Notes: generated by a model not told the origin, from the sequence alone. A stretch of DNA of 64,000 nt from an uncultured Actinomycetota bacterium (GCA_963770565.1 CAVYQE010000002.1:672001-736000), one strand, 5' to 3'. Positions 1 through 44,516 are shown, counted from the first letter of the stretch. Numbers and translations: made by a program.

Positions 1-550
1 CCAGCGGCTGCCGCTTCGCCGGGTCGGCCAGGTTGCCGCCGTACTCCGCGGCGAGCGCGAGCGCATCGGCCTCGGATAGACCTTCGGACTCGGCGATTCC
101 CGTACCGGGCAGGTAGACGCTGCCCTCGCTGACGTAGGCGGCTCCACTCTCAACGAGGGCCGCCGCGAGCGCCACCACCTGGCTGATGTGGTGACGAGCG
201 CGAGGCTCGTGATGCGGCCGGGAGACCCGCAGCGCTGCCATGTCAGCATCGAAGTGGTACTGCTGCAGGTAGGCGAAGGTGTCGTTCGGGGTGCCCGCAC
301 GGTCGGCCGCAGCGCTGAGCACGTCGTCGATGTCGGTGACGTTCCGGCAGACGATCGGGGTGGTGCGACTGTCGGCGAGCACGGCCGTGAGGACGTCGAC
401 CCAGACGTACGTCGCGGCGTGACCCAGATGCGTGACGTCGTAGGGGGTGATCCCGCAGACGTAGAGGCGCGCCCGGTCGATCATGGGCAGCGGCGATCCG
501 GCGATCGACATCGGTTCTGGCGGGGCGGCGGTCGGGTAGACGATCTGCAC
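1..550 (-). CDS. Cysteinyl-tRNA synthetase-like / MshC-like ligase (partial, runs off window)
   Basis: Manual translation from GTG at 550: ...ARLYVCGITPYDVTHLGHAATYVWVD...CRNVTDIDD (CGITPY and HLGH motifs of MshC/CysRS); absent from ORF track because it is truncated. Confidence 0.8.
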   Translation of the reverse strand, partial: MQIVYPTAAPPEPMSIAGSPLPMIDRARLYVCGITPYDVTHLGHAATYVWVDVLTAVLADSRTTPIVCRNVTDIDDVLSAAADRAGTPNDTFAYLQQYHFDADMAALRVSRPHHEPRARHHISQVVALAAALVESGAAYVSEGSVYLPGTGIAESEGLSEADALALAAEYGGNLADPAKRQPL

Positions 551-579
551 GCCCCCATGATCCTCCGCGCCGCGGCGGC

Positions 580-1035
580 TCATCGACCGGTCGACGTACT
601 TGGTACGGCAGTGAGGAGGAACTCGCGCTGCTCATCGTGCATCAGTGGCGGGAGCTCGCGGAACCAGCCGTAGGCCCGGGCCGCGTCATCCAGCTCGATC
701 GTCCCGGTCCATTCGGTGACCTTGAAAGCGATGCCCACCGGGCTGTCCAGGTTGTTGTTGTAGTGGCTGGGGTACTCGATGTACCCGAGGAGCTCGGCGC
801 GATCCACCGATATCCCGAGTTCCCCCCTCGCGACCCGGGCGACCGCGTCGGTCAGCGGCTCTCCGAATCGGACCGTGCCGCCCGGCAGGTGCCACAAGCC
901 TCGGCAGGGCTCGGCATCGCGTCTGGTGAGGAGAACCCCGCGCTCGGAGACCAGCACGACTTCCACAGTCAGCCGGGGAACCTTGCGGTAAATCGTCCAG
1001 AACTCCCGCTCGGACAGCGGGTGGTCCACGTCCAT
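580..1035 (-). CDS. NUDIX hydrolase, GDP-mannose mannosyl hydrolase-like
   Basis: WHLPGGTVRFGE...RVARGELG degenerate Nudix box; start trimmed to ATG of MDVDHPLS. Confidence 0.75.
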   Translation of the reverse strand: MDVDHPLSEREFWTIYRKVPRLTVEVVLVSERGVLLTRRDAEPCRGLWHLPGGTVRFGEPLTDAVARVARGELGISVDRAELLGYIEYPSHYNNNLDSPVGIAFKVTEWTGTIELDDAARAYGWFRELPPLMHDEQREFLLTAVPSTSTGR

Positions 1036-1086
1036 CTCATCAGTCAACGCTCGTTCGCCCCTCGCGTAATAGGGTCTTAGGTCTCT

Positions 1087-1102
1087 ATACCCACAGGGGT
1101 AT
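1087..1102. promoter_or_regulatory. CsoR/CstR-type operator 1 (upstream of sqr)
   Basis: ATACCCACAGGGGTAT palindrome; recurs at 5168, 7180, 8857. Confidence 0.75.
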
Positions 1103-1175
1103 CCCTGGTAGACCGGGGGCATCGTGAGGAAAGCCTGCCCGTTGGACGGTTGGCTCGTCCGCCAAGGAGCACCTG

Positions 1176-2636
1176 ATGGCTCGTGTCGTTGTCCTCGGCG
1201 CTGGGATCTCCGGCCACACCGCCGCACTCCACCTTCGCCGGCTCCTCGCTCGGCGCCACGAGGTCGTCGTCGTCTCACCGAATGCCGACTACAACTGGAT
1301 CCCTTCAAACATCTGGGTCGGCGTCGGACGGATGGATGTTGACCAGGTCACCTTCCCGCTTGCGCCCGTGTACCGGAGAAAAGGTATCGACTTTCGGCAA
1401 GCCCGGGCGGTCGAGCTCTGGCCAGAAGGCGACGACTCGAACGCCCAAGGTGCGGTCGAGATCGAGTACACCCTTCCCCATCGGTCCGGCGAGCATGAAC
1501 GACTCGCCTACGACTTCCTGATCAACGCGACCGGCCCCAAGCTGAACTTTGCGGCGACGCCGGGCCTCGGCCCGGAAGGAGGACACTCCCTGTCCGTTTG
1601 TACGGCACAGCATGCATCGGCCACCGCGGCCAAGTTCGCCGAGGTCATCGCGGCGCTTGAACGCGGCGAGACCCGGCGCCTCGTGATCGGGGTAGGCCAC
1701 GGCACGTGCACGTGCGAGGGCGCCGCTTTCGAGTACGCCTTCAACGTCGAGCACGAGCTACGGTCCCGCGGCCTCCGCGAGCGCGCCGAGGTGACCTACC
1801 TCACCAACGAGCACGAACTCGGTGACTTCGGCGTCGGCGGCATGACGTTCGCGCAGCACGGCTTTCTCACGACCAGTCAACTGTGGACGGAGTCGCTGTT
1901 CATGGAGCGCGACGTCAAGGCGGTCGTCGGCGCACATGTGCAGCGGGTCGAGCCGGGCAAGTTGTTCTACGAAACCCTCGACGGCGAGGAGGGCGCGCTG
2001 GAGTTCGACTTCGCGATGCTGCTGCCGCCCTTCCGCGGCCAGGATCTCAAGGCGTACGACCACAGGGGCGCCGACATCACGAGCGAGATGTTTGCCCCGA
2101 ACGGTTTCCTGAAAGTCGACGCTGACTACAGCCCAAAGCCGTACAACGAGTGGAAGGCGGCAGACTGGCCGAGGACGTACGTGACTCCGAAGTACCCGAA
2201 CGTGTTCGGTGTGGGGATCGCATTTGCCCCACCGCACCCGATTTCGAAGCCACGAACCTCACCCGGCGGCACCGTGATCTCGCCGGCTCCGCCCCGCACC
2301 GGAATGCCGTCAGGGCTGATGGGACGTCAGGTGGCACGCAGCATCGCGGACATGATCAACACCGGCGCGACGACGCCCACCCACACTGCGTCGATGGCGG
2401 ACATGGGTGCGGCCTGTGTGGCATCGGCCGGCGCTGGCTTTCGCAAGGGCACGGCGGCCTCCATGACGATGTACCCAGTCGTCCCGGACACCGACCGGTT
2501 CCCCGGCTACGGCCGCAGCCTCACCGATACGACCGGCGAGCTCGGACTAGCCGGGCACTGGATCAAGCACATGCTGCACGTGATGTTCATCTACAAGGCC
2601 AAGGGCCGTCCAGGCTGGTCCCTGATCCCGGAGTGA
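1176..2636 (+). CDS. sqr: Sulfide:quinone oxidoreductase-like flavoprotein
   Basis: VVVLGAGISG FAD motif, WIPSNIWVGVG, CTCEGAAFE, PPRTG, CVAS; RBS AAGGAG; sulfur-gene context. Confidence 0.8.
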   Translation: MARVVVLGAGISGHTAALHLRRLLARRHEVVVVSPNADYNWIPSNIWVGVGRMDVDQVTFPLAPVYRRKGIDFRQARAVELWPEGDDSNAQGAVEIEYTLPHRSGEHERLAYDFLINATGPKLNFAATPGLGPEGGHSLSVCTAQHASATAAKFAEVIAALERGETRRLVIGVGHGTCTCEGAAFEYAFNVEHELRSRGLRERAEVTYLTNEHELGDFGVGGMTFAQHGFLTTSQLWTESLFMERDVKAVVGAHVQRVEPGKLFYETLDGEEGALEFDFAMLLPPFRGQDLKAYDHRGADITSEMFAPNGFLKVDADYSPKPYNEWKAADWPRTYVTPKYPNVFGVGIAFAPPHPISKPRTSPGGTVISPAPPRTGMPSGLMGRQVARSIADMINTGATTPTHTASMADMGAACVASAGAGFRKGTAASMTMYPVVPDTDRFPGYGRSLTDTTGELGLAGHWIKHMLHVMFIYKAKGRPGWSLIPE

Positions 2637-2644
2637 GGAGCCCG

Positions 2645-2863
2645 ATGACCGAGAACAATGCCGCGGCCTCGTCCGCGCAGCCCACAGCGGGCGGGTCCGC
2701 GACGGATCACGTGCGCGCGGTCGGCGAGGTCGCTGACTCCCTGGCGCCGATGCCGACCAGACGGACGATTCGGATCCGAACGTTCCTGCCCTATCAGGCG
2801 TACCGCTTCGGTGTCATCAACCTCAAGATGCTCAAGGTGACCCGTCGCTCCCAGTCAAGGTGA
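2645..2863 (+). CDS. Small basic protein downstream of sqr
   Basis: GAGGAG RBS overlapping sqr stop, ATG 2645, 72 aa ending RTFLPYQAYRFGVINLKMLKVTRRSQSR. Confidence 0.65.
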   Translation: MTENNAAASSAQPTAGGSATDHVRAVGEVADSLAPMPTRRTIRIRTFLPYQAYRFGVINLKMLKVTRRSQSR

Positions 2864-2888
2864 GCCTGGCGACCCCGGGTCTCGACCT

Positions 2889-2935
2889 AATGTTCGGACA
2901 TTTCCTTGACCCGAGCGAGTAAATGTCCGTACATT
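2889..2935 (+). promoter_or_regulatory. Promoter with tandem GntR/HutC-type operators
   Basis: AATGTTCGGACATT (2889-2902) and AATGTCCGTACATT (2922-2935); TTGACC-N18-TACATT ends 6 nt before ATG 2942. Confidence 0.65.
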
Positions 2936-2941
2936 GAGTGA

Positions 2942-3775
2942 ATGAGGCAGGAGTCACACCCACCGGGCCTGGCCCGAATCGACCGAACCGGGTCGGTGTC
3001 GCTGTGGGCGCAGGTCCGCGCTGATCTGGAGCGACGGCTCGCGGTCGATGAGTTCGACGGTGACTTCCCCGGCGAACTGGAGCTGACCGCGCAATACGCG
3101 GTCAGCCGGCACACCATTCGGGAGGCGTTGCGTCACCTGCGCGCGGAAGGCCTCGTCATCAGTGAGCGCGGACGCCGCTCTCGCCTCGCCGACCACGCTG
3201 AAATCGAGCAACCGCTCGGCGCGCTCTACAGCCTGTTCGCCTCGGTCGAGGCCGCCGGTCTGGAGCAGCGCAGCGTCGTCCGCGCCCTTGATCTCCGCGC
3301 CGACGGAGTCATCGCGCCGCGACTCGACGTCGAGGAGTCCACCCCACTGCTCTATCTGGAACGGCTCCGTCTGGCCGGCGAGAAGCCGTTCGCGATGGAC
3401 CGCGTCTGGCTCCCCGCGTCAGTCGCCGAACCGCTGCTCGACGCGGACTTCACCCACACTGCCCTGTACGACGAACTCGCCGCGCGCTGCGGATTCCGCC
3501 TGACCGGCGGCCGGGAACACATCCGCGCGGTCCTTCCGACCACGGCCGAACGCAGACTGCTCGAACTCGACGACACCACCGCACTGTTCGCGATCGAACG
3601 CCTTGGTGAACGGGCCGGCCAGCCAATGGAGTGGCGCCACACCCTGGTCCGTGGCGACCGATTCGCCCTCACTGCCGACTTCACCGCCCACACCGGCTAC
3701 CGGCTCGAGCTGTCCGGCCCCGAACGACAGGCTTCCAACCTCGCGACCGCATCGCAAGGACACGCCCATGGCTGA
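2942..3775 (+). CDS. GntR family regulator (HutC/UTRA)
   Basis: FPGELELTAQYAVSRHTIREAL wHTH plus UTRA-like C-terminus. Confidence 0.9.
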   Translation: MRQESHPPGLARIDRTGSVSLWAQVRADLERRLAVDEFDGDFPGELELTAQYAVSRHTIREALRHLRAEGLVISERGRRSRLADHAEIEQPLGALYSLFASVEAAGLEQRSVVRALDLRADGVIAPRLDVEESTPLLYLERLRLAGEKPFAMDRVWLPASVAEPLLDADFTHTALYDELAARCGFRLTGGREHIRAVLPTTAERRLLELDDTTALFAIERLGERAGQPMEWRHTLVRGDRFALTADFTAHTGYRLELSGPERQASNLATASQGHAHG

Positions 3776-4121
3776 CCCCTTCGATCCGCAGACTCGGGTC
3801 GACGAAGTCAGCCCGGCCGCAGCGCGGGACCTCGCCGATGCCGGTGCCGTGCTCGTCGATGTCCGTGAGCCGGACGAATGGGCCGCGGGCCACATCGCCG
3901 ACGCACAGCACATCCCGCTCGGCGACCTCGACCCTGACCTGTTCGTCGGCGGCCCGCTCGTAGTCGCTGTGTGCCGCTCGGGGCACCGCTCCGGCACCGC
4001 GGCGCTGCGATTGCACGACGCGGGAGTCGACGTCCGCAACATGACGGGCGGAATGAAGGCCTGGCAGGCCGACGGCCTGCCCGTCACCCGCGACGACGGC
4101 ACCACCGGCTCAGTCGCGTGA
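3768..4121 (+). CDS. Single-domain rhodanese (sulfurtransferase)
   Basis: DVREPDEW..GHI, active-site CRSGHRS, GGMKAW. Confidence 0.9.
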   Translation: MADPFDPQTRVDEVSPAAARDLADAGAVLVDVREPDEWAAGHIADAQHIPLGDLDPDLFVGGPLVVAVCRSGHRSGTAALRLHDAGVDVRNMTGGMKAWQADGLPVTRDDGTTGSVA

Positions 4122-5041
4122 CGCTCGCCTTGGCACTTCTCCTCGGTGCCGTCATCGGGCTCAGCCTGGGGGCCCTTGGTGGTGGCGGTTCGATCCTCAC
4201 CGTCCCGGCGCTCGTGTATGCGCTCGGCGAGAAGGCGTCGGCAGCCACGACCGGCAGCCTGATCATTGTCGGGATCACCGCGCTCGTTGGTTCCTTCGGC
4301 CACGCACGAGCGGGCCGGGTGCGCTGGCGCGCCGGGTTCGGTTTCGGTCTCGCCGGGGTCGCCTCGAGCTCCCTCGGGACAGCGCTCAACCGTCATATCA
4401 ACCCGGATGTGCTGCTGCTCGCCTTCGCCGGCCTGGTGGTGATCGCAGCGTCAGGTATGTGGCGTCATGCCGGGGCTGCCATCGCGGTATCTGGTGATCA
4501 GCTCGAGCTTCGCGTCGCCGAGCCTGCTTTGGCGGTGGACGGCTCAAACGCTTCGAGGAGCGCAGCGGTCGAACTACCCGGCGACCGAGGCATCCGTCCC
4601 ACACCGGCCAGCCAGCCGGAGGGATCGATCGACTTCCCCGGTGGCTCAACCACCCACGATTCCCTGAGAACCGTCCTCAAGGTGGTCGCCGCCGGTCTTA
4701 TCGTCGGCTTTCTCACCGGGTTCTTCGGTGTTGGCGGCGGCTTCGTCATCGTGCCCGCCCTGGCCCTCGTACTCGCCTACCCGATGCCTGAGGCGATCGG
4801 AACGTCCCTGCTGATCATCGCCATCAACTCAGCAGCCGCCCTCGGCGAACGAGCCGGCCAACATCAGACAGTTCATTGGCACGTGATCGCGCCGTTTACG
4901 GTCGCGGCTGTTGCCGCCAGCCTCGCCGGCAAGCAGGTCGCCGACCGAGTCGACGGACCAAGGCTGACGCGCGCCTTCGTCATTCTTCTGATCGCGGTCG
5001 CGATCTACACCGCGGTCCGCAGCATCGTCGGCCTCAGCTGA
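4118..5041 (+). CDS. Sulfite exporter TauE/SafE family
   Basis: LGGGGSILTVP and FFGVGGGFVIVP repeats, AIGTSL; GTGA overlap with rhodanese stop. Confidence 0.9.
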   Translation: MTLALALLLGAVIGLSLGALGGGGSILTVPALVYALGEKASAATTGSLIIVGITALVGSFGHARAGRVRWRAGFGFGLAGVASSSLGTALNRHINPDVLLLAFAGLVVIAASGMWRHAGAAIAVSGDQLELRVAEPALAVDGSNASRSAAVELPGDRGIRPTPASQPEGSIDFPGGSTTHDSLRTVLKVVAAGLIVGFLTGFFGVGGGFVIVPALALVLAYPMPEAIGTSLLIIAINSAAALGERAGQHQTVHWHVIAPFTVAAVAASLAGKQVADRVDGPRLTRAFVILLIAVAIYTAVRSIVGLS

Positions 5042-5084
5042 GCAGACGGGAGACACCTGCTGTCACACGACACGACGGGCAAGG

Positions 5085-5130
5085 GTGGAGACTTCAACTG
5101 GGCACTAGCGGGGACTTCCAACTGGCCATA
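5085..5130. mobile_element. Degenerate IS21-like terminal repeat remnant
   Basis: Two 23-nt units GTGGAGACTTCAACTGGGCACTA / GCGGGGACTTCCAACTGGCCATA. Confidence 0.5.
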
Positions 5131-5166
5131 GTTGGGAATAGACGCCGGGCGAGTGCCGTTGAATCC

Positions 5167-5184
5167 TATACCCCTAGGGGTATA
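5167..5184. promoter_or_regulatory. CsoR/CstR-type operator 2
   Basis: Perfect 18-bp palindrome TATACCCCTAGGGGTATA just before RBS GGAGGAG. Confidence 0.8.
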
Positions 5185-5200
5185 CTGGAGGAGAAACGCC

Positions 5201-5410
5201 ATGGAACTCGTACGCTTTATGCAGACTTCGATAGGAAGAAGCCTTCGGGCCGTGCTCGGGGTGGTCCTGATCGCCGTCGGTGTCGTCCTTGGTGGTGCCT
5301 GGCTAGCGCTGGCTGGTATCGGTCTCGTTCCCCTTATCGTCGGATCGGCGGGTCTTTGCCTCATCGCCCCTCTACTCCACGCTCCGATCCGTGGAGCTCA
5401 GAGATCATGA
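5201..5410 (+). CDS. DUF2892/YgaP-type small membrane protein
   Basis: 69 aa, GRSLRAVLG..two TM..GLVPL...CLIAPLL; strong RBS. Confidence 0.75.
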   Translation: MELVRFMQTSIGRSLRAVLGVVLIAVGVVLGGAWLALAGIGLVPLIVGSAGLCLIAPLLHAPIRGAQRS

Positions 5411-5465
5411 GTGAGGCGCGCTCCGATTTCGGCAACTCACACATGACAGTTGACGGGACACGAGC

Positions 5466-6071
5466 GTGACCACGCTGGACCGGCAAGGGTGGGATGAGCG
5501 GTACCGGGACACCGAGCTGGTGTGGGGCTCTGGCCCCAACCGATTTCTCGTGGACCATGTGACGAACCTGACGCCAGGGACTGCGCTGGACGTGGCGTGC
5601 GGTGAGGGTCGCAACGCCATCTGGCTTGCGCATCAGGGATGGCGGGTGGTCGGGGTCGACTTCTCGTCCGTTGGTCTTGACAAGGCGCGAGGGCTGGCAG
5701 CGGAGACTGGTGTCACGGCGGAGTGGGTGCAGGGTGACCTCACCACATGGGAGCCACCGAAAAGCTATGACCTCGTCGTTGTCATGTACCTGCATTTGCC
5801 AGGCGCTGTGCGTCACAGTGTCTTTGCGCGGATGGCAAAGTCGGTGGCACCGGGCGGGACCATGCTCGTGGTAGGTCATGACATGTTGAACCTCACCGAG
5901 GGAACCGGCGGTCCACAGAATGCTGCCGTTCTCTACGGGCCTGAGGACGTTGTCGGCGATATCGGCTCGGTACTTGCGATCGAGAGAGCGGAGCGTGTTC
6001 ACCGGCCGGTCTCCGGTTCGGAGGGCGAGGCGATGGCCATCGACGTCCTGGTTCGCGCTCACCGATCCTGA
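5466..6071 (+). CDS. Class I SAM-dependent methyltransferase (TehB/TPMT-like)
   Basis: WDERY..WGSGPN, ALDVACGEGRNAIWLA. Confidence 0.85.
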   Translation: MTTLDRQGWDERYRDTELVWGSGPNRFLVDHVTNLTPGTALDVACGEGRNAIWLAHQGWRVVGVDFSSVGLDKARGLAAETGVTAEWVQGDLTTWEPPKSYDLVVVMYLHLPGAVRHSVFARMAKSVAPGGTMLVVGHDMLNLTEGTGGPQNAAVLYGPEDVVGDIGSVLAIERAERVHRPVSGSEGEAMAIDVLVRAHRS

Positions 6072-6084
6072 ACCTTTACAGGCC

Positions 6085-6798
6085 TTAGGCGGTGGCAGAT
6101 GGCGCACGGAGCCACCGCAACCATTCGGTGTCGCCCATTAGGTCCAGCCGGCGCCAGAGCACGGGGTTATCCGTAGCCTGGCTTGCGTGGAGGGCGATGG
6201 CGCGATGCTGAATAGAACGGTCGACATGAAGCACGATGTCGACCTCGTCCTCGCTGCAGCCGGCAAAGCAGGTGCCGAAGGCGGCGTTGAGGGAATCGGC
6301 CACCGAGTCCGGGATCGACCAAGCAATCACAGGCAGATCAAGTAACTCGGCCGCACGCAAGGCTGCTTCTGTCGCCCGTTGATGGTCGCGGTGTCCCGTG
6401 ATCCCACCGAGATCGAAGACAAGTAGCCCATGAGCACCAACCGCGTTGACATATCCAACGACATCGTCGACCAGGATGTCGAGTTCGATGGAGTCGAGAC
6501 TTCCATCAGCGTGGTCCAGCAGCCGCACATCGCTGACCGTGAGTGCATCGGCGGCGGCGGCAAGCTCGGCGACCCGGACGACACGAAGGTCACCTGACGT
6601 CCCGTGCAGGGCTGACGCCTCGCCGTGAGTGAAACTGAGCACGGCGGTCGATGTGCCGGCGGCCGTCAAACTAGCGATGACAGCGCCCAAGCCGAAGGAC
6701 TCGTCGTCGGGGTGGGCGCACACAGCAACTACGGACGGCAGCCCCACAGCATCCAGCGTCATATCGCAATCTGACGCGCTGGGACGCCGCGCGGTCAT
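6085..6798 (-). CDS. PIG-L/LmbE family deacetylase
   Basis: AHPDDESFG and GHRDH metal motifs, HASQ. Confidence 0.9.
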   Translation of the reverse strand: MTARRPSASDCDMTLDAVGLPSVVAVCAHPDDESFGLGAVIASLTAAGTSTAVLSFTHGEASALHGTSGDLRVVRVAELAAAADALTVSDVRLLDHADGSLDSIELDILVDDVVGYVNAVGAHGLLVFDLGGITGHRDHQRATEAALRAAELLDLPVIAWSIPDSVADSLNAAFGTCFAGCSEDEVDIVLHVDRSIQHRAIALHASQATDNPVLWRRLDLMGDTEWLRWLRAPSATA

Positions 6799-7163
6799 GA
6801 CACGACGTTGGACTTGGCGACGAGGCGGTGGATCTCGTCCATGTCGAGGTCACGCACCTTCCCAATGAGCTCGTCCAGTGCAGCAGCCGGCAGTGCTCCG
6901 GGCTCCCTGTAGACGATCACCTCGTCGCGCAAGATCATGAGGGTCGGGATCGACATGATGCCGAACCCAGAGGCCATCTCTTGCTCGCCCTCAATGTCCA
7001 CTTTGGCGAACAAGAGATCCGAGTGAGTTTCAGAGGCCTTCTCGAACACGGGGGCGAATGCCCTGCAGGGTCCGCACCACGACGCCCAGAAGTCCACCAG
7101 CACGATCTCATTGCTGGTCACCACCGTGTCGAAATCCCCTTTGGTAACAGTCACCGTGGCCAC
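6795..7163 (-). CDS. trxA: Thioredoxin
   Basis: DFWASWCGPC, IMSIPTL. Confidence 0.92.
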   Translation of the reverse strand: MATVTVTKGDFDTVVTSNEIVLVDFWASWCGPCRAFAPVFEKASETHSDLLFAKVDIEGEQEMASGFGIMSIPTLMILRDEVIVYREPGALPAAALDELIGKVRDLDMDEIHRLVAKSNVVS

Positions 7164-7179
7164 TGGCGCCCTTCCCTGG

Positions 7180-7195
7180 GTACCCCCTGGGGTAT
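7180..7195. promoter_or_regulatory. CsoR/CstR-type operator 3 (upstream of trxA)
   Basis: GTACCCCCTGGGGTAT; shorter variant ATACCCGGGGTAT at 7247-7259. Confidence 0.7.
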
Positions 7196-7319
7196 AGTCT
7201 ACAAGGACGGCCCGCCTGGTGTCATTCCCCCTCGCACCACAATGAGATACCCGGGGTATGACCGGGGTGGGGTCGCGTTGGACCGGTCGCTCGGTGGCGC
7301 TGATGGCGTCGTCTTGCTG

Positions 7320-7949
7320 CTATTGCGACGGACTAGCCGGATTCGCGGCCACGCCGAGGGTGAACCAGCTCCACGGTTTCGGTCCGTTGGCGTAGCGCCG
7401 CTCGATCCGCTCGATCACAAAGCCGGCATCGCCGACGAGAGCCGGAGCATCACGTGTGAGGTGGCAACCATCTCCCAGTCGGCGCTGCCACGGGTCGAGA
7501 CGGTATTGCCACCGGGCCACCGAGGCGTCGGGAGAGAGTCCGTGTTCGAGGAAATGGAAGCGGCCTCCCGGCCGGAGCACCCGGCGGAGTTCGGACAGAA
7601 CCTTGGTGGGGTCGGCGACGGTGCAGAGCGTGAACGTAGAGAGCGCTGCGTCGCAGCTGGCGTCGTCAAGGGGGATCGCCTGGCCGTCGAGACCGATGTG
7701 CTCGACGGGTGTCCTGCCGGCCATGACCCGCTTCGTAGCCAATCTTCGTGCGAGCGCGGCCGGTTCGACTGCTAACACCTTCTCCACTTCTGGTGGATAG
7801 TGCTCGACGTTGAGACCGGAACCGAATCCGATCTCGACGACCCGGCCAGCGAGTCCCTCCGTCACCTCGGCGCGCCAGCCTCGCAGAGCGCCCGTGCTAC
7901 ATGCCCGGTCTACCAGGCGGGGAAGGACCTGCTCGCGGTAGAAGCTCAC
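7320..7949 (-). CDS. Class I SAM methyltransferase, METTL7/MddH-like
   Basis: SFYREQVLPRLVDRAC, VEIGFGSGLN, FTLCTV, LEHG, GCHLTR; start trimmed to GTG 7949. Confidence 0.8.
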   Translation of the reverse strand: MSFYREQVLPRLVDRACSTGALRGWRAEVTEGLAGRVVEIGFGSGLNVEHYPPEVEKVLAVEPAALARRLATKRVMAGRTPVEHIGLDGQAIPLDDASCDAALSTFTLCTVADPTKVLSELRRVLRPGGRFHFLEHGLSPDASVARWQYRLDPWQRRLGDGCHLTRDAPALVGDAGFVIERIERRYANGPKPWSWFTLGVAANPASPSQ

Positions 7950-8068
7950 GGTCGCGACGCTACCGGTGCCGCCGGAGGACAACACCGCTGTGAGTGTCCG
8001 TGATCGAGGCGGGCGTCGTTTGGAGACTCCCTTGCGGTTGGCGTAGCGCGGATCTGCGCAACAAACCG

Positions 8069-8791
8069 TCAAGCGACGCGGATTGCCGCCTCGATCTCGA
8101 CTCGGGCCAGCTCCTTGGTGCAGAAGAACCAGTCCTCGCACTCGATGCCGTCGATCCCGTCGTCCATGCGCTCCTTGGCGGTGCCGCATGATCCGGCGGT
8201 GGGGACGATGACCCGCTCGCCGGGCTGCCAGTCGGCGGGGGTGGCGACTGAGAAATGGTCGGCGGTCTGCAGCGCCTTGACCACCCGCAACAGTTCGGGG
8301 AAATTGCGCCCGATGCTGAGCGGGTAGTAGATGATCGTCCGGATCACGCCCTCGGGGTCGATGACAAACACCGCGCGTACCGCCTTGGTGGAGTCCTCGC
8401 CGGGCATGATCATCCCGTACTTGCGGGCCACCTCCATCGTGATGTCCTCGATGAGGGGGAAGGTGACCTCGACGTTCTTCATGTCGCGGTAGGTGATCTT
8501 GTCCTTGATGGTGCGCAGCCAGGCGATGTGGCTGTAGAGGCCGTCGACCGACAAGCCCACGAGGTCGGTGTTGTAGGCCGCGAACTGCTCTTGCATCGAC
8601 GCGAAGGTCATGAACTCGCTGGTACAGACCGGCGTGAAGTCGGCTGGGTGCGAGAACAAGATGACCCACTTGCCGACGTAGTCGGACGGGAAGTTGATCT
8701 CCCCTTGTGTCGTCACGGCGGTAAAGGATGGCGCCGGGTCGCCGATGCGCGGCATCGTCGGGACAAGGGCAGGCGTCTCAATACTGGTCAC
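8069..8791 (-). CDS. Peroxiredoxin (Prx6 / archaeal-type)
   Basis: FSHPADFTPVCTSEF, TPADW, C-terminal CEDWFFC. Confidence 0.92.
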   Translation of the reverse strand: MTSIETPALVPTMPRIGDPAPSFTAVTTQGEINFPSDYVGKWVILFSHPADFTPVCTSEFMTFASMQEQFAAYNTDLVGLSVDGLYSHIAWLRTIKDKITYRDMKNVEVTFPLIEDITMEVARKYGMIMPGEDSTKAVRAVFVIDPEGVIRTIIYYPLSIGRNFPELLRVVKALQTADHFSVATPADWQPGERVIVPTAGSCGTAKERMDDGIDGIECEDWFFCTKELARVEIEAAIRVA

Positions 8792-8856
8792 GGTGCGGCT
8801 TCCTCTGTTCAAATCGTCGGTGGCCCCGCAAAAGGGGGATCTACTATGACCAACCA

Positions 8857-8872
8857 ATACCCATGGGGGTAT
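8857..8872. promoter_or_regulatory. CsoR/CstR-type operator 4 (upstream of peroxiredoxin)
   Basis: ATACCCATGGGGGTAT. Confidence 0.75.
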
Positions 8873-9141
8873 ATTCCGCGTGATCGCCAGTTCCGTGACG
8901 CCCGCATCCGCATCTTTGCCCCCTGCTCGTCCAGCGTTCTACGTGGCGCGGCTCCGCGGCTCTCCCCGCGGGTCAGCACTGGCTGATCCAGGCGCCCGCG
9001 GTGGTGTTCGCGGCCCTTCGTCGGGTCGCGCAGCACGATCCGCTGCTGCTGGCCAACGGGGTCAATCTGGCCGAAGCTGAGGCCGGCTTCGACGGTTTGA
9101 ACCCAAGCCCACTCTGGGATAGTGCACCTGTGGTCTGGTCA

Positions 9142-9546
9142 ATGCGGTTCGGCGCAGCGACGGCCAGGATCCCGTCGTTGAGTCGATCTGCTGCATTCGA
9201 TGGACACGCGCCGACGCTGCGCGACGGCAGGCGCTGTGGCGCCGTCGTGCTTCTCGTCGTGGCACTAGCGCTCTTCGTCCGTGACGTTCCTGCGCTTACG
9301 ACCGACAGCGGCGGTGTTCATCCGGCCGTGAGCCATGCGCAGTTCGTCGCACATGGCGCCCTCGGCGTCGACGCCGCCACCCTCACACGCAGCCTGGATC
9401 GCGGCGGCGCCCGCTCCGCGGAGCCCGCCGTTCAGGCCGATTCGCTCAGAGAACGCCCGGTCGATGCACCTTGGGCGAAACTGCCCGCGACCCAATGGGT
9501 GCCACCGCCTCGATCGTTGCCAACCGCCCGCGCACGCGCGCCCTGA
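9142..9546 (+). CDS. Hypothetical leader-like protein, TM segment and C-terminal RARAP
   Basis: Hydrophobic AVVLLVVALALFV, ends WVPPPRSLPTARARAP-stop; start uncertain. Confidence 0.4.
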   Translation: MRFGAATARIPSLSRSAAFDGHAPTLRDGRRCGAVVLLVVALALFVRDVPALTTDSGGVHPAVSHAQFVAHGALGVDAATLTRSLDRGGARSAEPAVQADSLRERPVDAPWAKLPATQWVPPPRSLPTARARAP

Positions 9547-9661
9547 AGCCGGTCTTCCTCCCTTCGTACTTAGTCACTGCGGCACTGCACGCGCACCTTC
9601 GGCCTTGGTAACGGCCAGCGTCCGCGCGGCCGGTGAATCAACTTCGCAGAAAGGACCGGGC

Positions 9662-10471
9662 GTGTCAGCTAGCAACACCACATCCCCGACGACAGACAGA
9701 ATCGCACGTAGCGCAGCTATCTCCGAGCCCGAGCGGAGCCCGACCGGTGTCTCGTCCCGCCTCGCCGCCATCCGCCGGGCCGCTCCGGAGGCGCTACTCG
9801 TTGTGGCCTTGTACATGGCATACACCGCGACCCGAAATCTCCTCCCGTCAGCACGTCGGAGCGCGATCGCGCGAGGACTGGCCGTGGAAAGGTTCGAGGG
9901 TTCGCTGCACCTTGACCCTGAACGCGCGCTCAACCAATTCGTGGCAAATCACGCCGTGTTGGCGAGCACGTGTGATTACTACTACGCGGTCGCCCACTTC
10001 GCGGTGACCCTCGCGGTGATGATGCTTCTATACCGACGAAGTCGGCCGACGGCACGTCGACTGGCAGCGGCCTGGTACGTCACCAACCTGCTGGCGCTGC
10101 TGGGCTTCTGGCTCTACGCGCTGGCGCCACCCAGGCTCCTTCCCGGCCGCGCATACGTCGACACTGTCGTCGTGTTCCATACCTGGGGGAGCTGGGGGAC
10201 GGGTGCGGTGGCGTCGGCCTCGAACCAATACGCCGCGATGCCCAGCCTGCACCTCGCCTGGGCGAGTTGGTGCACGGTCGGAATCTGGCACCTGACCCGA
10301 CGCCGCTCGGTGCGACTCCTTGGCGTCGCGTATCCCCTGGCGACGCTGTTCGTCGTGCTCGGCACCGCAAACCACTATCTGCTCGACGCCTTCGCGGGGG
10401 TCGTGGCGATGGCCATCGGGCTTGCGGTGGTGTGGTACGCACAAGAAACGATGGGGGGCTCGATCGGATGA
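9662..10471 (+). CDS. PAP2 family inositolphosphoceramide-synthase-like membrane protein
   Basis: APPRL, NQYAAMPSLH, TANHYLLD; RBS GAAAGGA before GTG 9662. Confidence 0.85.
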   Translation: MSASNTTSPTTDRIARSAAISEPERSPTGVSSRLAAIRRAAPEALLVVALYMAYTATRNLLPSARRSAIARGLAVERFEGSLHLDPERALNQFVANHAVLASTCDYYYAVAHFAVTLAVMMLLYRRSRPTARRLAAAWYVTNLLALLGFWLYALAPPRLLPGRAYVDTVVVFHTWGSWGTGAVASASNQYAAMPSLHLAWASWCTVGIWHLTRRRSVRLLGVAYPLATLFVVLGTANHYLLDAFAGVVAMAIGLAVVWYAQETMGGSIG

Positions 10472-10477
10472 GAGGGG

Positions 10478-10906
10478 GTGGGCCGCACTGACGATTTGCC
10501 AGGTGTGGTCGGGCCAATGCCCCCGACACACAGACACAGAATCCACGGACCTACCGAAGTGACCGCCCCGCAGGACACGTCCCAACAAGCGATCAAACCG
10601 TTGCCCGGGTGGCGTACCGGCGATCTCTCTTTCCGGGCGCTCGCGCTCGGTTACCTCCTGTTGGCGACTGCTGTGCTAGCTCTGGCCGCATCCGGCTCGT
10701 GGGTGGGCATGGCGGGCGCCGGCCTCGTCACCGCAGGCGAGATCGCCCTCGTCATCGTCTGGTCGGGCGCGCCGAATGCTGGTCAATTTGCCCGCTCCTC
10801 GCGACGGCCAGGCTTACCTCGTGGCGCCAAGCGGTCGCACCGAACTACCGGGTCGGGCGCCGATGCACCTGACGATCCGACAAGGGGCGGGTCGAGCCCC
10901 ACCTGA
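10478..10906 (+). CDS. Hypothetical membrane protein
   Basis: Two hydrophobic segments, directly after PAP2 gene. Confidence 0.4.
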   Translation: MGRTDDLPGVVGPMPPTHRHRIHGPTEVTAPQDTSQQAIKPLPGWRTGDLSFRALALGYLLLATAVLALAASGSWVGMAGAGLVTAGEIALVIVWSGAPNAGQFARSSRRPGLPRGAKRSHRTTGSGADAPDDPTRGGSSPT

Positions 10907-11222
10907 GCGAGTCGCGTCGGAATGTCGCGGCCGTCAGCGTAGGTGGCCGGCACGGGCAGCTCGACGGTCACGTTGGCGACGCTCTATGACTACGAGGCGC
11001 GGCCGGTCGGACGCACCATTGCGCCGGTGGGTCATCTCATTGCCCGGCCGAGGTTGAGCAGAACCGGCAAATTGTCGGTCGACGTCTGCTGCCGGGCGCC
11101 TCGCCATGCGGTCGCTGCCGTCGCTTGCCCGGTCTAATAGCGTATAGAGGCGGGGCCGATTCATCGAGTGCCCGGATCGCTCACGAAACCTCGGATGCCG
11201 GTTCCGGATCGGTCCGGGCCGA

Positions 11223-11252
11223 TCAGGTGAAGATGATCTGGCCGCCGGCGGC
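11223..11252 (-). pseudogene. Possible 3' remnant of DsrE2-like sulfur carrier
   Basis: AAGGQIIFT-stop in high-GC codons, no upstream gene body. Confidence 0.4.
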
Positions 11253-11300
11253 CTGCAAGCGAGTTACATCAGTGTGTTCAGCGAAAGCGCAGGTCAGCAG

Positions 11301-11389
11301 CGGAGGCTCCGGGATTTGAACCCGGGATGGGCGCGAACCCAAACCGCATTAGCAGTGCGGCGCCATAGACCGGACTAGGCGAAGCCTCC
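11301..11389 (-). tRNA. tRNA-Ser(GCT)
   Basis: GGAGGCTTCGCCTAGTCCGGTCTATGGCGCCGCACT-GCT-AATGCGG...GGTTCAAATCCCGGAGCCTCCG, long variable arm. Confidence 0.95.
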
Positions 11390-11419
11390 TCGCGGCGTTT
11401 ATCGGCCGCGTCGAAGAGG

Positions 11420-12865
11420 TTATCCCAGCGCGGTTTGCTGGTCCCGCGCCAACAACCGCTTGCCGGGCAGGCCCAGCGGGTTCCACTCGTCGATCCCTCC
11501 GTTGTTGGTCACGAACACCACCCCGCCCGCGGGGTCGGCCGTCATGCCCTCGGCCTGGAGCAGGCCGTCGAGCCGGGCGGTCGGCACCGGATTCCGCGAC
11601 CGCAGCGCGGCCGGCGAGTAGTACACGAGGTACGGGTCGTAGTGGAACGGGTTGTCGCTGCGCAGTGCGACGTACACGCCGTGCGTCGGATCGCCCGTCA
11701 CAGACCCCACCTCGAGCGGCAACCGGAGGGTCACACTCGGTGGCTCGTCGATCCGCGTCTGGTAGGTCAGCACCCGCCCCCGAGCGATCCAGATCCCGTA
11801 CGACGGGGCGGGTGCCATCAGGGTCAGGCCGGTCAGCCCGAGGTAGACGAACTGGCCGCTCGGCAGCACGCGCATGGTGCCGCTGCGGCCCGCGACCAGG
11901 ACCGAGGTCGCACTGAGCGGGATGACGAACCGCGCGCCTGCGACGGTCGACTCGCGGTCCGCACCAAGCACGCCGTCGTGCACCGCCACCACACGGTTGA
12001 CCGTCGGCTCAGTCAGCCAGGCGAAGTCCTTGGTGAAGGCCATGTCGTCGATCGCGACCGGTGGCGACGAGCGCAATGTGGTGATGGTGCCAACCGGAGT
12101 CACGGTCGCGATCGCGGTGTAGTGGAAGTCGGCCTCATTGTGCCAGGCCCAGACCTTGCCGAAGCCATAGCTGATGTGGTCGTCGGGCTGCGGCACGCGG
12201 TCGCGGCTCTGGATCGCGCCGGTCACCGGATTGCGCCCGACGACGTAGGAAATCGAGCCGCTCCTGGTCGCCCGGCTCTCGATCGTCCAGATGAGGCCGC
12301 CGCCGGTCGTCACCCCGCTCGCGAAGTCGATCAACCGCTTCGGGAACACCGCCTCGGTGACCGGCACAGCCCTGCGGACATGGTGCGGCTTGGGCGTGCG
12401 CGTCGACCCCGACCCGGACGAGCCCGCGGTCACCGCGACTGCAATCACCACCACGGCCGCGACCAACCCGGTCAGCACGCGGCGCTGTCTCACCAGCCGC
12501 AGCCGGCGAGCCAGGATCGCCAGCACCTGGTCGGCACCGAGCATCGCCGGCTCGACGACCACGGTCTCGGTCGCCTCGTCGACGTGTACGCCGGCTACCC
12601 CGACCTCCATCAGCTGGAAGTCGAGCGGCTCCTGCGGCTCCCGAGCCCGGTCGTGCATCCGGCAAGCGCGCGCCAGCGCCCGGCGTACCAAGGGAGCTGG
12701 GTCGTCCTTATCGCGGGCAAACCGCCAGCGCGCGGCGACCCGGGTCAATGCCGAGAGCGCAAGCTCCTGCGCGGTCCTCGAGTCTGCGTCGTCACAGCGC
12801 CGCGCCGCGTCCCGGACGAGATCGGGCCAGCGCTCCCGCACATAAGAGGTCAGCCGCTCGTCCAC
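11420..12865 (-). CDS. Membrane protein with degenerate ECF sigma region-2-like N-terminus and extracytoplasmic beta-rich domain
   Basis: N-term YVRERWPDLVR..AQELALSALTRVAARW..DDPAPLVRRAL; single TM; beta-propeller-like C-terminus. Confidence 0.6.
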   Translation of the reverse strand: MDERLTSYVRERWPDLVRDAARRCDDADSRTAQELALSALTRVAARWRFARDKDDPAPLVRRALARACRMHDRAREPQEPLDFQLMEVGVAGVHVDEATETVVVEPAMLGADQVLAILARRLRLVRQRRVLTGLVAAVVVIAVAVTAGSSGSGSTRTPKPHHVRRAVPVTEAVFPKRLIDFASGVTTGGGLIWTIESRATRSGSISYVVGRNPVTGAIQSRDRVPQPDDHISYGFGKVWAWHNEADFHYTAIATVTPVGTITTLRSSPPVAIDDMAFTKDFAWLTEPTVNRVVAVHDGVLGADRESTVAGARFVIPLSATSVLVAGRSGTMRVLPSGQFVYLGLTGLTLMAPAPSYGIWIARGRVLTYQTRIDEPPSVTLRLPLEVGSVTGDPTHGVYVALRSDNPFHYDPYLVYYSPAALRSRNPVPTARLDGLLQAEGMTADPAGGVVFVTNNGGIDEWNPLGLPGKRLLARDQQTALG

Positions 12866-16579: not shown

Positions 16580-19566
<2,987 letters not shown>

Positions 19567-19586
19567 ACCCAGGACCGTAACAAGGA

Positions 19587-19671
19587 CCAAGCAATGTCAC
19601 ATTGCCCCCCACTCCGTGGGGGCAATGTGACACCACCCCAGGAAAGACCGGGGCAATGTGACATTGCTTGG
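19587..19671. repeat. REP-like palindromic element family A, copy 2
   Basis: 22-bp perfect terminal IR CCAAGCAATGTCACATTGCCCC...GGGGCAATGTGACATTGCTTGG. Confidence 0.85.
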
Positions 19672-19676
19672 CAGGG

Positions 19677-21338
19677 TCAGACGGCGGGGTCGAGAGCGGC
19701 TCGGACCCTGGCTCGCGCCTCGGACGGCCCGTCGGCCGAGACCGCGGCGGCCGCGAAGCCGACGCAGTCGTCGTAGCTGTGCCGGGCCAGCGTCATCCGC
19801 ACGTCCGCGAGCGCCCGCGGCGTCATCGACAACGCCGCCGCGCCAAGCCCGACCAGCACCAGCGCCAGCAGCGGATCGCTCGGTGCCTCACCACACACCG
19901 TCACCGGTCGGCCCGCCATCGCGCCGGCGCGGAGCACGGTCGCGACCAGGTCGAGGAAGGCCGGCTGCCACGGGTCGAGCAGGTCGGAGAGCTCGCTGTC
20001 GGCCCGATCCGTCGCGAAGGTGTACTGCGCGAGGTCGTTGCTTCCGATCGAGACGAAGTCGACCACCCGCAGCAGATCGCCGGCCCGAAGCGCCGCGGCC
20101 GGCACCTCGACCATCACCCCCGTCGTCGTGACGCCGGCCTCGTGCGCCTGCGCGGCGAACCACGCCGCCTCCGCCGCGGTCGCGACCATCGGCGCCATGA
20201 CCCGCACCTGCGCCGCGGACCCGCGCGCGGCACTCGCGATCGCGGTCAGCTGGTCTGTGAGCAGCTCGGGGTGCCGGCGCGCGACCCGCAGCCCGCGGAC
20301 CCCGAGCGCCGGGTTCGACTGCTCCCCCAACCGCACGTACGACGCCGGCTTGTCGGCCCCGATGTCGAGCGTCCGGACCGTGACCTGCCGTGCCGGGAAG
20401 GCGTCGAACACCTCCCGGTATGCCGCTGACTGCTCGGCCACGCTCGGCGGTTCGATCCGGTCGAGGAAGGCGAACTCGGTGCGGAACACCCCGACCCCTT
20501 CGGCGCCCGCCTCGATCGCGTCAGCGACGTCGAGGCTGCTGCCGACCGCGGCCATCAGCTGCACGGGGCGGCCGTCGCGGGTGCGCCCGGGACCGCGACT
20601 GGTCGCGACCGATCCGGCCGGGGCCGACTCGGCCCCGCGGTTCGCCGCGCCGAGGGCGGCCTGGTCCGGGTCGGCAGTCACCTGGCCCGCGGAACCGTCC
20701 ACGAGCACCCGCTGCCCACTGCGCAGCGAGGCCACCCCCGGACAGCCGACCACCGCCGGGATGCCCAGCGACTTGGCCAGCACGGCGGTGTGGCTGGTCG
20801 GCCCGCCGCGCTCGGTGACGATCGCGAGCACCTGCTGCGGGTCGAGGCCGGCGGTCACCGCCGGCGACAGGTCGCGCGCCACCAGCACGTACGGCGAACC
20901 GGTGTCCGGGATGCCGGGCGGCGGCTCACCCAACAAGCGGGCGACGACGCGGTCGCGGATGTCGTCGAGCTCCACCCGGTCCGGCACCGCGCGCATCGGG
21001 TCCGCCGCGCGCATGTCCCGGTAGGCGCTGAAGCCCTCCCAAGCGGCTCGGGGCGCCGCCCGGCCGGAGCTGACGAGCTGGGTCACCAGGGACGCGAGCG
21101 AGGGGTCGCGCGAGATCCTGGCCTGCCGGACGAGGACCGCGCCGGAGGCGCCGGCCCGCTGCGCGAGCGCCTCGAGCTCACCGCCGACCGCGTCGAGCGC
21201 GTCAGCGGCCCGGTCGGCCTCCACGTCGATGTCGATCGGCGCCCCGTCCCGCGGCGGGAGCACCGGGCCGTGCACGCGCGCGACCGGTCCGGCCGCGACG
21301 CCCGCGCTGACGCCGATGCCGGAGTAGGTGGACGGCAA
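19677..21338 (-). CDS. ptsI: PEP-protein phosphotransferase (PTS enzyme I)
   Basis: GGPTSHTAV phospho-His motif, FRTEF, RTLDIGADK, IGSNDLAQY, VCGE. Confidence 0.88.
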   Translation of the reverse strand: MPSTYSGIGVSAGVAAGPVARVHGPVLPPRDGAPIDIDVEADRAADALDAVGGELEALAQRAGASGAVLVRQARISRDPSLASLVTQLVSSGRAAPRAAWEGFSAYRDMRAADPMRAVPDRVELDDIRDRVVARLLGEPPPGIPDTGSPYVLVARDLSPAVTAGLDPQQVLAIVTERGGPTSHTAVLAKSLGIPAVVGCPGVASLRSGQRVLVDGSAGQVTADPDQAALGAANRGAESAPAGSVATSRGPGRTRDGRPVQLMAAVGSSLDVADAIEAGAEGVGVFRTEFAFLDRIEPPSVAEQSAAYREVFDAFPARQVTVRTLDIGADKPASYVRLGEQSNPALGVRGLRVARRHPELLTDQLTAIASAARGSAAQVRVMAPMVATAAEAAWFAAQAHEAGVTTTGVMVEVPAAALRAGDLLRVVDFVSIGSNDLAQYTFATDRADSELSDLLDPWQPAFLDLVATVLRAGAMAGRPVTVCGEAPSDPLLALVLVGLGAAALSMTPRALADVRMTLARHSYDDCVGFAAAAVSADGPSEARARVRAALDPAV

Positions 21339-22259: not shown

Positions 22260-22372
22260 GCTGAACGGAGTCTTCCCCAGGTAGCGTCAGCCGACCCCTG
22301 TGCTATTCCACGCGACCCTAGACCGCGCTCCGGGGAGGCTGTCCAGCGGAAATTCTGGATCGGTTGCCGACT

Positions 22373-30351: not shown

Positions 30352-30362
30352 CGTCGCATTTG

Positions 30363-30451
30363 CGGAGGGCGTGGGATTCGAACCCACGATGACGCTTCCG
30401 CGCCATAGCGGTTTTCAAGACCGCCGCCATCGGCCACTAGGCGAGCCCTCC
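30363..30451 (-). tRNA. tRNA-Ser(TGA)
   Basis: GGAGGGCTCGCCTAGTGGCCGATGGCGGCGGTCT-TGA-AAACCGC...GGTTCGAATCCCACGCCCTCCG. Confidence 0.95.
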
Positions 30452-37120: not shown

Positions 37121-37204
37121 ACAGTCATCTTCGGCACGAAGTCCGGTAATAGTTAGCGTTCCTTGTTAGCACTTACTCTACCTGAGTGTGAGTAATATGT
37201 ACAC

Positions 37205-42530: not shown

Positions 42531-42532
42531 CC

Positions 42533-44382: not shown

Positions 44383-44419
44383 GAGGACCGTTTCCCTCCG
44401 GTGCTGCACCAGGCAGCTT

Positions 44420-44516
44420 CCGAAGGTCTCTTCCGCTCAGCCGAACTGAGCCGGTACGCCGGGCCCGGACACCGAGCCGTACTGACGACGCAACCGCGGA
44501 GGAATACTCCCCTTCA
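44420..44516 (-). ncRNA. yybP-ykoY (Mn2+) riboswitch
   Basis: GAAGGGGAGTA...CGTCAGTACGG...CCGGCG...GAGACCTTC directly upstream of TerC. Confidence 0.85.

Follow-up and report, generated by a model that had tools for sequence, protein, structure and literature searches.

A probable CstR-type regulon for sulfide and reactive-sulfur stress, with methyltransferase, thioredoxin and PIG-L accessory genes, in an uncultured Actinomycetota bacterium

We analyzed a 64,000-nucleotide stretch of DNA (the window) from an uncultured Actinomycetota bacterium (GCA_963770565.1, CAVYQE010000002.1:672001-736000), in which twelve genes at positions 580-8872 form an island around a gene for sulfide:quinone oxidoreductase (SQR). 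The island is organized into five or six transcription units. It is probably a CstR-type regulon for sulfide and reactive-sulfur stress, CstR being the branch of the CsoR repressor family that senses persulfide, and its repressor gene would be located outside the window. This kind of system is known; its accessory set is not described in the searchable literature. An earlier note, made from the sequence alone, had proposed a single co-regulated sulfide/persulfide unit of eleven genes with one operator motif. The span that it gave, 1087-8872, runs exactly from the first operator to the last, all eleven genes that it named were confirmed by the Pfam and NCBIfam scans (one of them, a small open reading frame (ORF), having no family), and one co-regulated unit is indeed suggested because the genes share an operator.

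The shared operator is the palindrome ATACCC-N4-GGGTAT. Scanning of the whole 64 kb with ATACCCNNNNGGGTAT, with up to two mismatches allowed, identified four sites. All four are intergenic and lie inside the island:

1087..1102, unstranded: operator 1, ATACCCACAGGGGTAT, 74 nt ahead of the ATG of sqr and 52 nt ahead of that of the NUDIX gene
5168..5183, unstranded: operator 2, ATACCCCTAGGGGTAT, perfectly palindromic, 18 nt ahead of the DUF2892 start
7180..7195, unstranded: operator 3, GTACCCCCTGGGGTAT, one mismatch, 17 nt upstream of the trx start
8857..8872, unstranded: operator 4, ATACCCATGGGGGTAT, 102 nt upstream of the prx ATG

The expected number of sites is 0.42, and four sites were reached by one of 100 shuffles. 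The units behind the operators are nudix-mshC and sqr-microprotein, which share one divergent region, duf2892-MT1, trx-pigL and prx-MT2 (MT1 and MT2 being the two methyltransferases). Promoter-like hexamers are present at three operators; they overlap operator 2 (5159-5186) and abut operator 3 (7225-7196, minus strand). Motif search with the half-site spacing variant TACCCNNNNGGGGTA gave no match. ATACCCGGGGTAT at 7246-7258, flanked by the trx promoter region on one side and the MT2 stop codon on the other, carries the operator half-sites with a spacer of 1 nt, not 4.

ScCsoR, the CstR-like repressor of Streptomyces coelicolor, binds a 16-bp site, ATACCn6GGTAT, that was defined by electrophoretic mobility shift assay, and polysulfide releases it from DNA through Cys37 and Cys66 (PMC7533328). 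All four window sites fit the ScCsoR site (PMC7533328), and they also resemble the core of the cst operator of the streptococcal species S. mitis (PMC8643695). The motif noticed earlier is real; what had been missed is that it fits a known CsoR/CstR-type operator, which would place the island in a described kind of system.

To compare related loci, we used 80 loci of SQR relatives (63-82% identity; L-numbers below) with flanks of 10 kb, or less where the contig was shorter; 44 of them span 15 kb or more. In 59 of the 75 loci whose upstream DNA was long enough, the motif was found no more than 300 nt upstream of SQR (shuffled mean, 0.04), and the strict 16-mer is found there in 48. Over the 80 loci we counted 117 operator sites. 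The ORF behind the site is SQR in 59 cases, a CsoR-family gene in 13, MMPL in 11, thioredoxin in 8, PIG-L in 3, DUF2892 in 3, and others in the rest. Among the 103 unlabelled ORFs flanking operator sites, 85 were scanned, duplicates and most very short ORFs being left out, and 16 gave a Pfam family; most of the remaining family-less ORFs are probably not genes. The MMPL-family transporters stand directly behind the CstR-type operator at 11 sites (e.g. in L005, L017, L028, L029, L042, L044, L048 and L050), with the site variant ATACCCACCCAGGTAT in L044, L048 and L050; an MMPL gene occurs at 11 loci, and the island has none.

ORF clustering and scanning of the representatives located a CsoR-family (PF02583) gene at 32 of the 80 loci. 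Of the 37 CsoR-family proteins found near SQR, 36 have a pair of Cys spaced 29 residues apart, and the copper-ligand His occurs in none of the 37; the residue at that position is Ser in 24, Gly in 9 and Asn in 3. This two-Cys, His-less pattern is x-C-x-C, the pattern of candidate persulfide sensors, and the actinomycete 'cluster 3' of the CsoR family, with 3,175 members, is described as largely uncharacterized (PMC8643695).

The gntR-rhodanese-tauE genes, whose stop and start codons overlap at both junctions (gntR/rhodanese and rhodanese/tauE), are preceded by palindromes of another type:

2889-2902 and 2922-2935, unstranded: two GntR-type palindromes AATGT-N4-ACATT, overlapping a promoter-like site before gntR

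The same palindrome also precedes gntR in L010, L042 and L050. The GntR regulator reached no NCBIfam equivalog. As a general binder of the shared operator it was rejected, because gntR is present at only 3 of the 80 loci and has its own conserved palindrome.

The genes of the island and the ligase gene next to it are as follows:

2..583, minus strand: MshC/CysS-family cysteine ligase, 5' part (tRNA-synt_1e, E 8e-26); the gene leaves the window
580..1035, minus strand: NUDIX-family gene (Pfam NUDIX, E 8e-13), divergent from sqr
1176..2636, plus strand: SQR, 486 aa (PDB 3hyv, E 1e-37)
2645..2863, plus strand: microprotein (the small ORF), no Pfam family
2942..3775, plus strand: GntR/HutC-subfamily regulator with UTRA domain (UTRA 1.5e-29, GntR 1.6e-10)
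3768..4121, plus strand: rhodanese, single-domain (Rhodanese, E 1e-16)
4118..5041, plus strand: TauE/SafE-family anion exporter (TauE, E 3e-43), GTG start
5201..5410, plus strand: YgaP-like transmembrane protein/DUF2892 (PF11127, 27.2 bits, cut-off 25.3)
5466..6071, plus strand: S-adenosylmethionine (SAM) methyltransferase 1 (MT1), 201 aa (Methyltransf_25; weaker TPMT and TehB matches)
6085..6798, minus strand: PIG-L/LmbE-family deacetylase or amidase (PIG-L, 3e-23)
6795..7163, minus strand: thioredoxin (WCGPC; TIGR01068, 102.1 bits, cut-off 96.8)
7320..~7958, minus strand: SAM methyltransferase 2 (MT2; Methyltransf_11, UbiE-like), downstream of prx; its start is uncertain, between 7958 and 8066
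8069..8755, minus strand: 1-Cys peroxiredoxin (NF009668, 329 bits, cut-off 211; PVCTSE)

The peroxiredoxin is also matched by the Pfam families AhpC-TSA (1.7e-31) and 1-cysPrx_C, and the active-site motifs are intact in the rhodanese, thioredoxin, peroxiredoxin and PIG-L proteins. Beyond the family level, the roles of the enzymes discussed below are putative.

Judged by its sequence, the SQR assignment is solid. The protein matches the solved SQRs 3hyv and 3sx6 (A. aeolicus and A. ferrooxidans) with E 1e-37; in the alignment its Cys142, Cys180 and Cys414 fall on the catalytic and FAD cysteines of the solved SQRs, and Cys142, Cys178, Cys180 and Cys414 are invariant in 22 SQR relatives. From the A. 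aeolicus structure, we take the aligned cysteines to be the redox pair and the FAD-linked Cys. The search found 7390 SQR relatives, many of them named SQR by JGI. In L042, a second SQR-like paralogue of 419 aa (17905-19164), followed by a DsrE-family protein (19482-19964), lies downstream of gntR-mshC-nudix.

The ORF that follows sqr represents a genuine gene family. It comes after SQR at 41-44 of the 80 loci, where its start ranges from 18 nt ahead of the SQR end to 47 nt past it, and it has the core APxPTxxTxRxR...Q..RF..N.KM with nine invariant columns. At E ≤ 0.001 the family has 442 cluster representatives, nearly all of 33-121 residues. It has no Pfam family, and the ESM Atlas gave unnamed actinomycete clusters only (0.87-0.89, under the 0.9 lead level). 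The predicted SQR-microprotein complex scored 0.60 (runs 0.64, 0.60 and 0.56), the best of three controls scored 0.01, at least 81% of the contacts agree between runs, and the pLDDT of the partner is at least 65. Of 157 solved complexes, 116 reached the mark for such predictions, as did 2 of 215 mismatched pairs; 18 of the 157 solved complexes, and both mismatched pairs that passed, reached it at 0.60 or under. The prediction weakly suggests that the microprotein may bind SQR.

The closest PDB match of MT1 is Slr1183 (3e-27), followed by the plant thiol methyltransferase 9h0d (1.6e-9), the methyl chloride transferase 3lcc (2.9e-9), the halide methyl transferase 8ajp (6.7e-7) and TehB (4e-6). 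Its relatives are labelled UbiG-type 'benzoquinol methylase' by JGI, a label which we take to be COG2227. In 6 of the 8 loci that hold it, MT1 is encoded on the SQR strand, no more than 475 nt downstream of SQR. MT2 homologues of 205-212 aa, with 63-65% identity, were found in L044, L048 and L050. In support of the earlier note, methyltransferases recur with SQR: at least one of them (MT1, MT2, a third family or an ICMT/MddA-like gene) is encoded within 10 kb of SQR at 28 of the 80 loci. The third family, of ~259 aa, is present at 21 loci and often follows a fusion of CoA-disulfide reductase (CoADR) and rhodanese.

The actinomycete enzymes MddM1 (210 aa, cytosolic, UbiG COG2227 class) and MddM2 (204 aa, UbiE-type) methylate H2S and methanethiol, are predicted to occur in over half of Actinomycetota, and their genes are induced by H2S, methanethiol and H2O2 (PMC12904073). 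The main text of that paper makes no mention of SQR, quinone, operon, gene neighbourhood or CsoR. Mammalian TPMT methylates HS-, polysulfides and glutathione persulfide (GSS-), which is a non-oxidative route of disposal (PMC13089183). MT1 is near MddM1 in size and class, MT2 is UbiE-like, as are MddH and MddM2 (PMC12904073, PMC11445057), and four related loci have an ICMT-family MddA-like gene; for MT1 and MT2 this likeness is one of size and COG class alone. Membership in the Mdd groups was set in PMC12904073 at E ≤ 1e-30 to the founding proteins, and the names of the 120 best MT1 matches gave no link to MddM1. Because of the structural matches of MT1 and the MddM and TPMT precedents, MT1 and MT2 (METHYLTRANSFERASES) are good candidates for sulfide/persulfide S-methyltransferases. 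SLAC1/TehA-family anion channels are encoded directly behind the operator beside SQR at L012:8781-9872 and L075:2381-3415; together with the TehB-like MT1, they recall the TehA/TehB pairing. The linkage of SQR operons to TPMT/TehB-like methyltransferases and the conserved microprotein after SQR are new leads from this analysis.

The PIG-L gene is translationally coupled to trx. Its product matches PF02585 with 83 bits (cut-off 28) and has the motifs AHPDDE and HRDH, AHPDD and HxDH being presumably the PIG-L/LmbE metal motifs. The closest solved relative is LnmX (6e-9), and the closest named relatives, with 86% identity, are from Acidimicrobiales. Like MshB and Mca of mycothiol metabolism and BshB2 of bacillithiol metabolism, the window protein has the PIG-L fold and metal-binding motifs, and an mshC-like ligase gene lies 5 kb off. 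Different from them, it falls far below every equivalog cut-off in NCBIfam (BshB2, 44 bits; MshB, 32.3 versus 224; Mca, 25.9 versus 277), so that it was ruled out as an Mca or MshB orthologue, and the 'thiol-conjugate repair' of the earlier note is a guess. Through the NUDIX gene, the mshC-like gene has the divergent operator region in common with sqr; among NCBIfam models it is matched best by MshC (TIGR03447, 104.7 bits) and next by cysS (88.5), both under the cut-off for this truncated gene. The family and the mshC-like neighbour alone suggest a role of PIG-L in low-molecular-weight-thiol metabolism.

We also analyzed the recurrence of the gene set by searching the 80 loci with the island proteins (tblastn, E ≤ 1e-5, at least half of the query covered). 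The small ORF matched 41 loci, the rhodanese 29, thioredoxin 19, DUF2892 9, MT1 8, PIG-L 7, NUDIX 4, GntR, MT2 and peroxiredoxin 3 each, and TauE 2. Nine of the twelve island families are present in L044, eight in L050, six in both L017 and L028, and five in six further loci; the richest-matching loci are metagenome-assembled Acidimicrobiaceae contigs. In several PIG-L loci, PIG-L or thioredoxin is directly behind the operator. The combination of the earlier note thus recurs as a partial set, whereas all twelve families were together in none of the 80 loci, 51 of which have two families or fewer. No description of this gene set, including a CstR regulon with thioredoxin and methyltransferase for sulfide, was found in the literature that could be searched, in agreement with the note, which had not recognized the combination as a described one.

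The cst operon of Staphylococcus aureus comprises cstR, cstA, cstB, sqr and tauE. CstB is a fusion of persulfide dioxygenase (PDO) and rhodanese (PMC12934615). The island shares with this operon a palindromic operator of the CsoR-family type, SQR, a sulfurtransferase and TauE, and by analogy it would share the logic of derepression by persulfide. Different from it, the window has neither cstR nor PDO (CstB), it has a single-domain rhodanese in place of CstA, its four operators are dispersed, and it also encodes the microprotein, two methyltransferases, PIG-L, thioredoxin, peroxiredoxin and NUDIX-mshC. The ScCsoR circuit of S. coelicolor consists of csoR, pdo-tauE and rhod; like the window, it has the 16-bp ATACCn6GGTAT operator form, an actinomycete host, and rhodanese and TauE as members, but it has PDO and was contrasted by its authors with SQR-possessing circuits, whereas the window has SQR and no PDO (PMC7533328). 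The cst-like operon of Enterococcus faecalis and streptococci consists of cstR, rhdA, rhdB and coaP, the last encoding CoA persulfide reductase (PMC8643695). It is CstR-controlled without PDO (PMC8643695), and a CoADR-rhodanese fusion of its type adjoins SQR in 26 of the 80 relatives; different from this operon, the window has SQR and no CoADR-rhodanese fusion. Of the features of cst-like systems, the window holds a CsoR/CstR-type operator, SQR, rhodanese and TauE, and its 64 kb holds neither a cstR gene nor PDO (CstB) or CoA persulfide reductase.

In the mechanism that we propose, a CstR-like repressor from outside the window would bind the four operators, and modification of its cysteine pair by persulfide or polysulfide would take it off the DNA. 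SQR, probably with the microprotein, would convert H2S to sulfane sulfur and deliver the electrons to quinone; the rhodanese, the DUF2892 protein and TauE would move or export sulfur. The two SAM methyltransferases may methylate HS-, thiols or persulfides into volatile or inert products, whereas thioredoxin, the 1-Cys peroxiredoxin and the PIG-L hydrolase may repair persulfidated or oxidized thiols, a repair that the nearby mshC-like gene possibly links to mycothiol. The gntR-rhodanese-tauE unit would be a separate second layer, autoregulated through its own AATGT-N4-ACATT sites.

Some observations weigh against a CstR-type regulon. No CsoR/CstR gene was found in the window by tblastn with the 37 relatives or by Pfam on 65 ORFs, and a CsoR-like C...HxxxC regular expression over 399 small ORFs gave implausible frames only; we therefore infer the repressor, its identity, its place elsewhere in the genome and the inducing signal. 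The motif is absent upstream of SQR in 16 of the 75 loci. Although its four sites in the island stand, the operator that the earlier note had taken as shared is missing from the gntR-rhodanese-tauE unit, and the promoter-like hexamers are consensus matches only. PIG-L fits no characterized orthologue group. Finally, similar palindromes are bound by the copper-sensing CsoR and RicR (PMC7533328), and the motif alone does not fix the signal. Accordingly, CsoR or RicR could be the regulator at these operators, and the island could be a regulon for copper or general metal stress. We consider this highly improbable: neither CopA, CopZ nor a multicopper oxidase was found in the island by Pfam and NCBIfam, the copper-ligand His is missing from all 37 CsoR-family proteins near related SQR genes, and the gene content is sulfur-related. 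It is also quite unlikely that the island is a general thiol or oxidative-stress regulon (peroxiredoxin, thioredoxin, NUDIX, mycothiol ligase) in which SQR is one member and the methyltransferases and PIG-L have unrelated substrates. Peroxiredoxin and thioredoxin are generic antioxidant proteins, peroxiredoxin is rare near SQR (3 of 80 loci), and mddM1 and mddM2 are H2O2-induced too (PMC12904073). However, no other gene stands behind the operator nearly as often as SQR (59 of 117 sites), and sulfurtransferases, TauE, persulfide reductase fusions and CstR-like genes are found in the neighbourhood.

A further alternative, put forward in the earlier note, concerns the fate of the sulfur: thioredoxin/peroxiredoxin reduction, S-methylation and the PIG-L amidase would dispose of SQR-derived sulfane sulfur instead of PDO. 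No PDO was found in the 64-kb window, where tblastn with the PDO-rhodanese proteins of four relatives returned the rhodanese domain only; likewise, there is no Lactamase_B domain among the 22 and 43 window ORFs scanned with Pfam and no CoADR-rhodanese fusion in the 64 kb. The rhodanese, with the active-site loop CRSGHRS, is most similar to PDO-rhodanese fusions, namely to their C-terminal rhodanese domain (50% identity in the case of L012). This bare rhodanese holds, in the window, the place of the fusion of four relatives, which is paired with TauE in L004 and L012 and divergent from GntR in L042 and L050. The methyltransferases near SQR at 28 loci, and TPMT as a mammalian precedent for non-oxidative methylation of reactive sulfur species (PMC13089183), also favour a PDO-independent pathway. 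Against it, a CoADR-rhodanese fusion lies within 10 kb of SQR in 26 of the 80 loci, a PDO-rhodanese fusion in 4 and neither in 50, so that local absence of PDO is common and uninformative; these counts are of strict clusters (4 PDO, 26 CoADR), relaxed coverage giving 8 and 31 via lone rhodaneses. Moreover, of the seven PIG-L loci, which all have thioredoxin, one has the PDO-rhodanese fusion, three have the CoADR-rhodanese fusion and three have neither, and of the eight MT1 loci three have PDO and one has CoADR. The accessories therefore travel as readily with these enzymes as without them; thioredoxin, PIG-L and the methyltransferases are accessories rather than demonstrated substitutes for PDO. 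The absence of PDO thus holds for the 64-kb window, which is part of a contig of ~895 kb, and a PDO-independent pathway appears doubtful. The CoADR-rhodanese fusions adjoin SQR and cstR, e.g. L021:12303-13931 and L017:15971-17614. In the window, TauE (4118-5041) has a Pro/Ser/Gly/Ala-rich loop of ~60 residues between its two halves.

Persulfide sensing by the CstR family has been elucidated for Firmicutes and for a single circuit of Streptomyces, and the large actinomycete branch is 'largely uncharacterized' (PMC8643695). Read as a CstR-type regulon, the locus and its 80 relatives outline the targets of that branch: SQR-microprotein, thioredoxin, a distinct PIG-L, DUF2892, MMPL, CoA-persulfide-reductase fusions and several methyltransferase families. 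If the methyltransferases act on H2S, thiol or persulfide, sulfide detoxification would be tied to methanethiol and dimethylsulfide from soil and freshwater actinomycetes, and the production of these compounds would have a testable regulator. It is conceivable, and we put it forward tentatively, that many Actinomycetota have a CstR-controlled, largely non-oxidative sulfide route. In such a route SQR with a bound subunit of ~50 residues would make sulfane sulfur, co-transcribed TPMT/Mdd-like methyltransferases would turn HS- and persulfides into volatile methyl (poly)sulfides, and a thioredoxin-PIG-L pair would strip or recycle a persulfidated low-molecular-weight thiol. MddM-type enzymes that produce dimethylsulfide would then gain a regulator and a physiological partner.

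The composition of the island differs from that of the backbone. As the earlier note had remarked, its third codon positions have more A/T: the G+C content at these positions (GC3) is 0.777 in the 12 island genes versus 0.861 in 37 backbone ORFs (Mann-Whitney p = 2e-4), with a minimum of 0.57-0.74 in DUF2892, MT1, PIG-L and MT2. The low GC3 and the Acidimicrobiales-like best PIG-L matches are compatible with acquisition by transfer. Neither an integrase nor an att-like repeat was found in the window; a tRNA-Ser(GCT) lies at 11300-11389, 2.4 kb right of the island, and no 13-mer from it or its flanks is repeated in the window. Besides this tRNA, Rfam found no RNA family and no riboswitch over 1-12000.

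On the left, the NUDIX gene has the same direction as the ligase gene. In the NUDIX protein the Nudix box is degenerate, with RVARGELG at the place where we would expect REUxEExG, which we take to be the Nudix-box pattern, and the regular expression for the canonical box was not matched. Its best NCBIfam match, GDP-mannose mannosyl hydrolase, is far under the cut-off. Homologues with 56-59% identity are present at 4 of the 80 SQR loci, all four from Acidimicrobiaceae, and in L042 a NUDIX-family gene is directly 3' of the mshC-like gene. The backbone also has stress/metalloid-type genes, for a chromate transporter, two class I methyltransferases and TerC (29173-30414, 36347-37165, 42518-43618 and 43414-44436), none of the four with an operator. 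Two PAP2_3 paralogues are encoded at 9335-10471 and 21342-22286; the first lies just right of the island and has an N-terminal extension of ~180 residues that belongs to no family.

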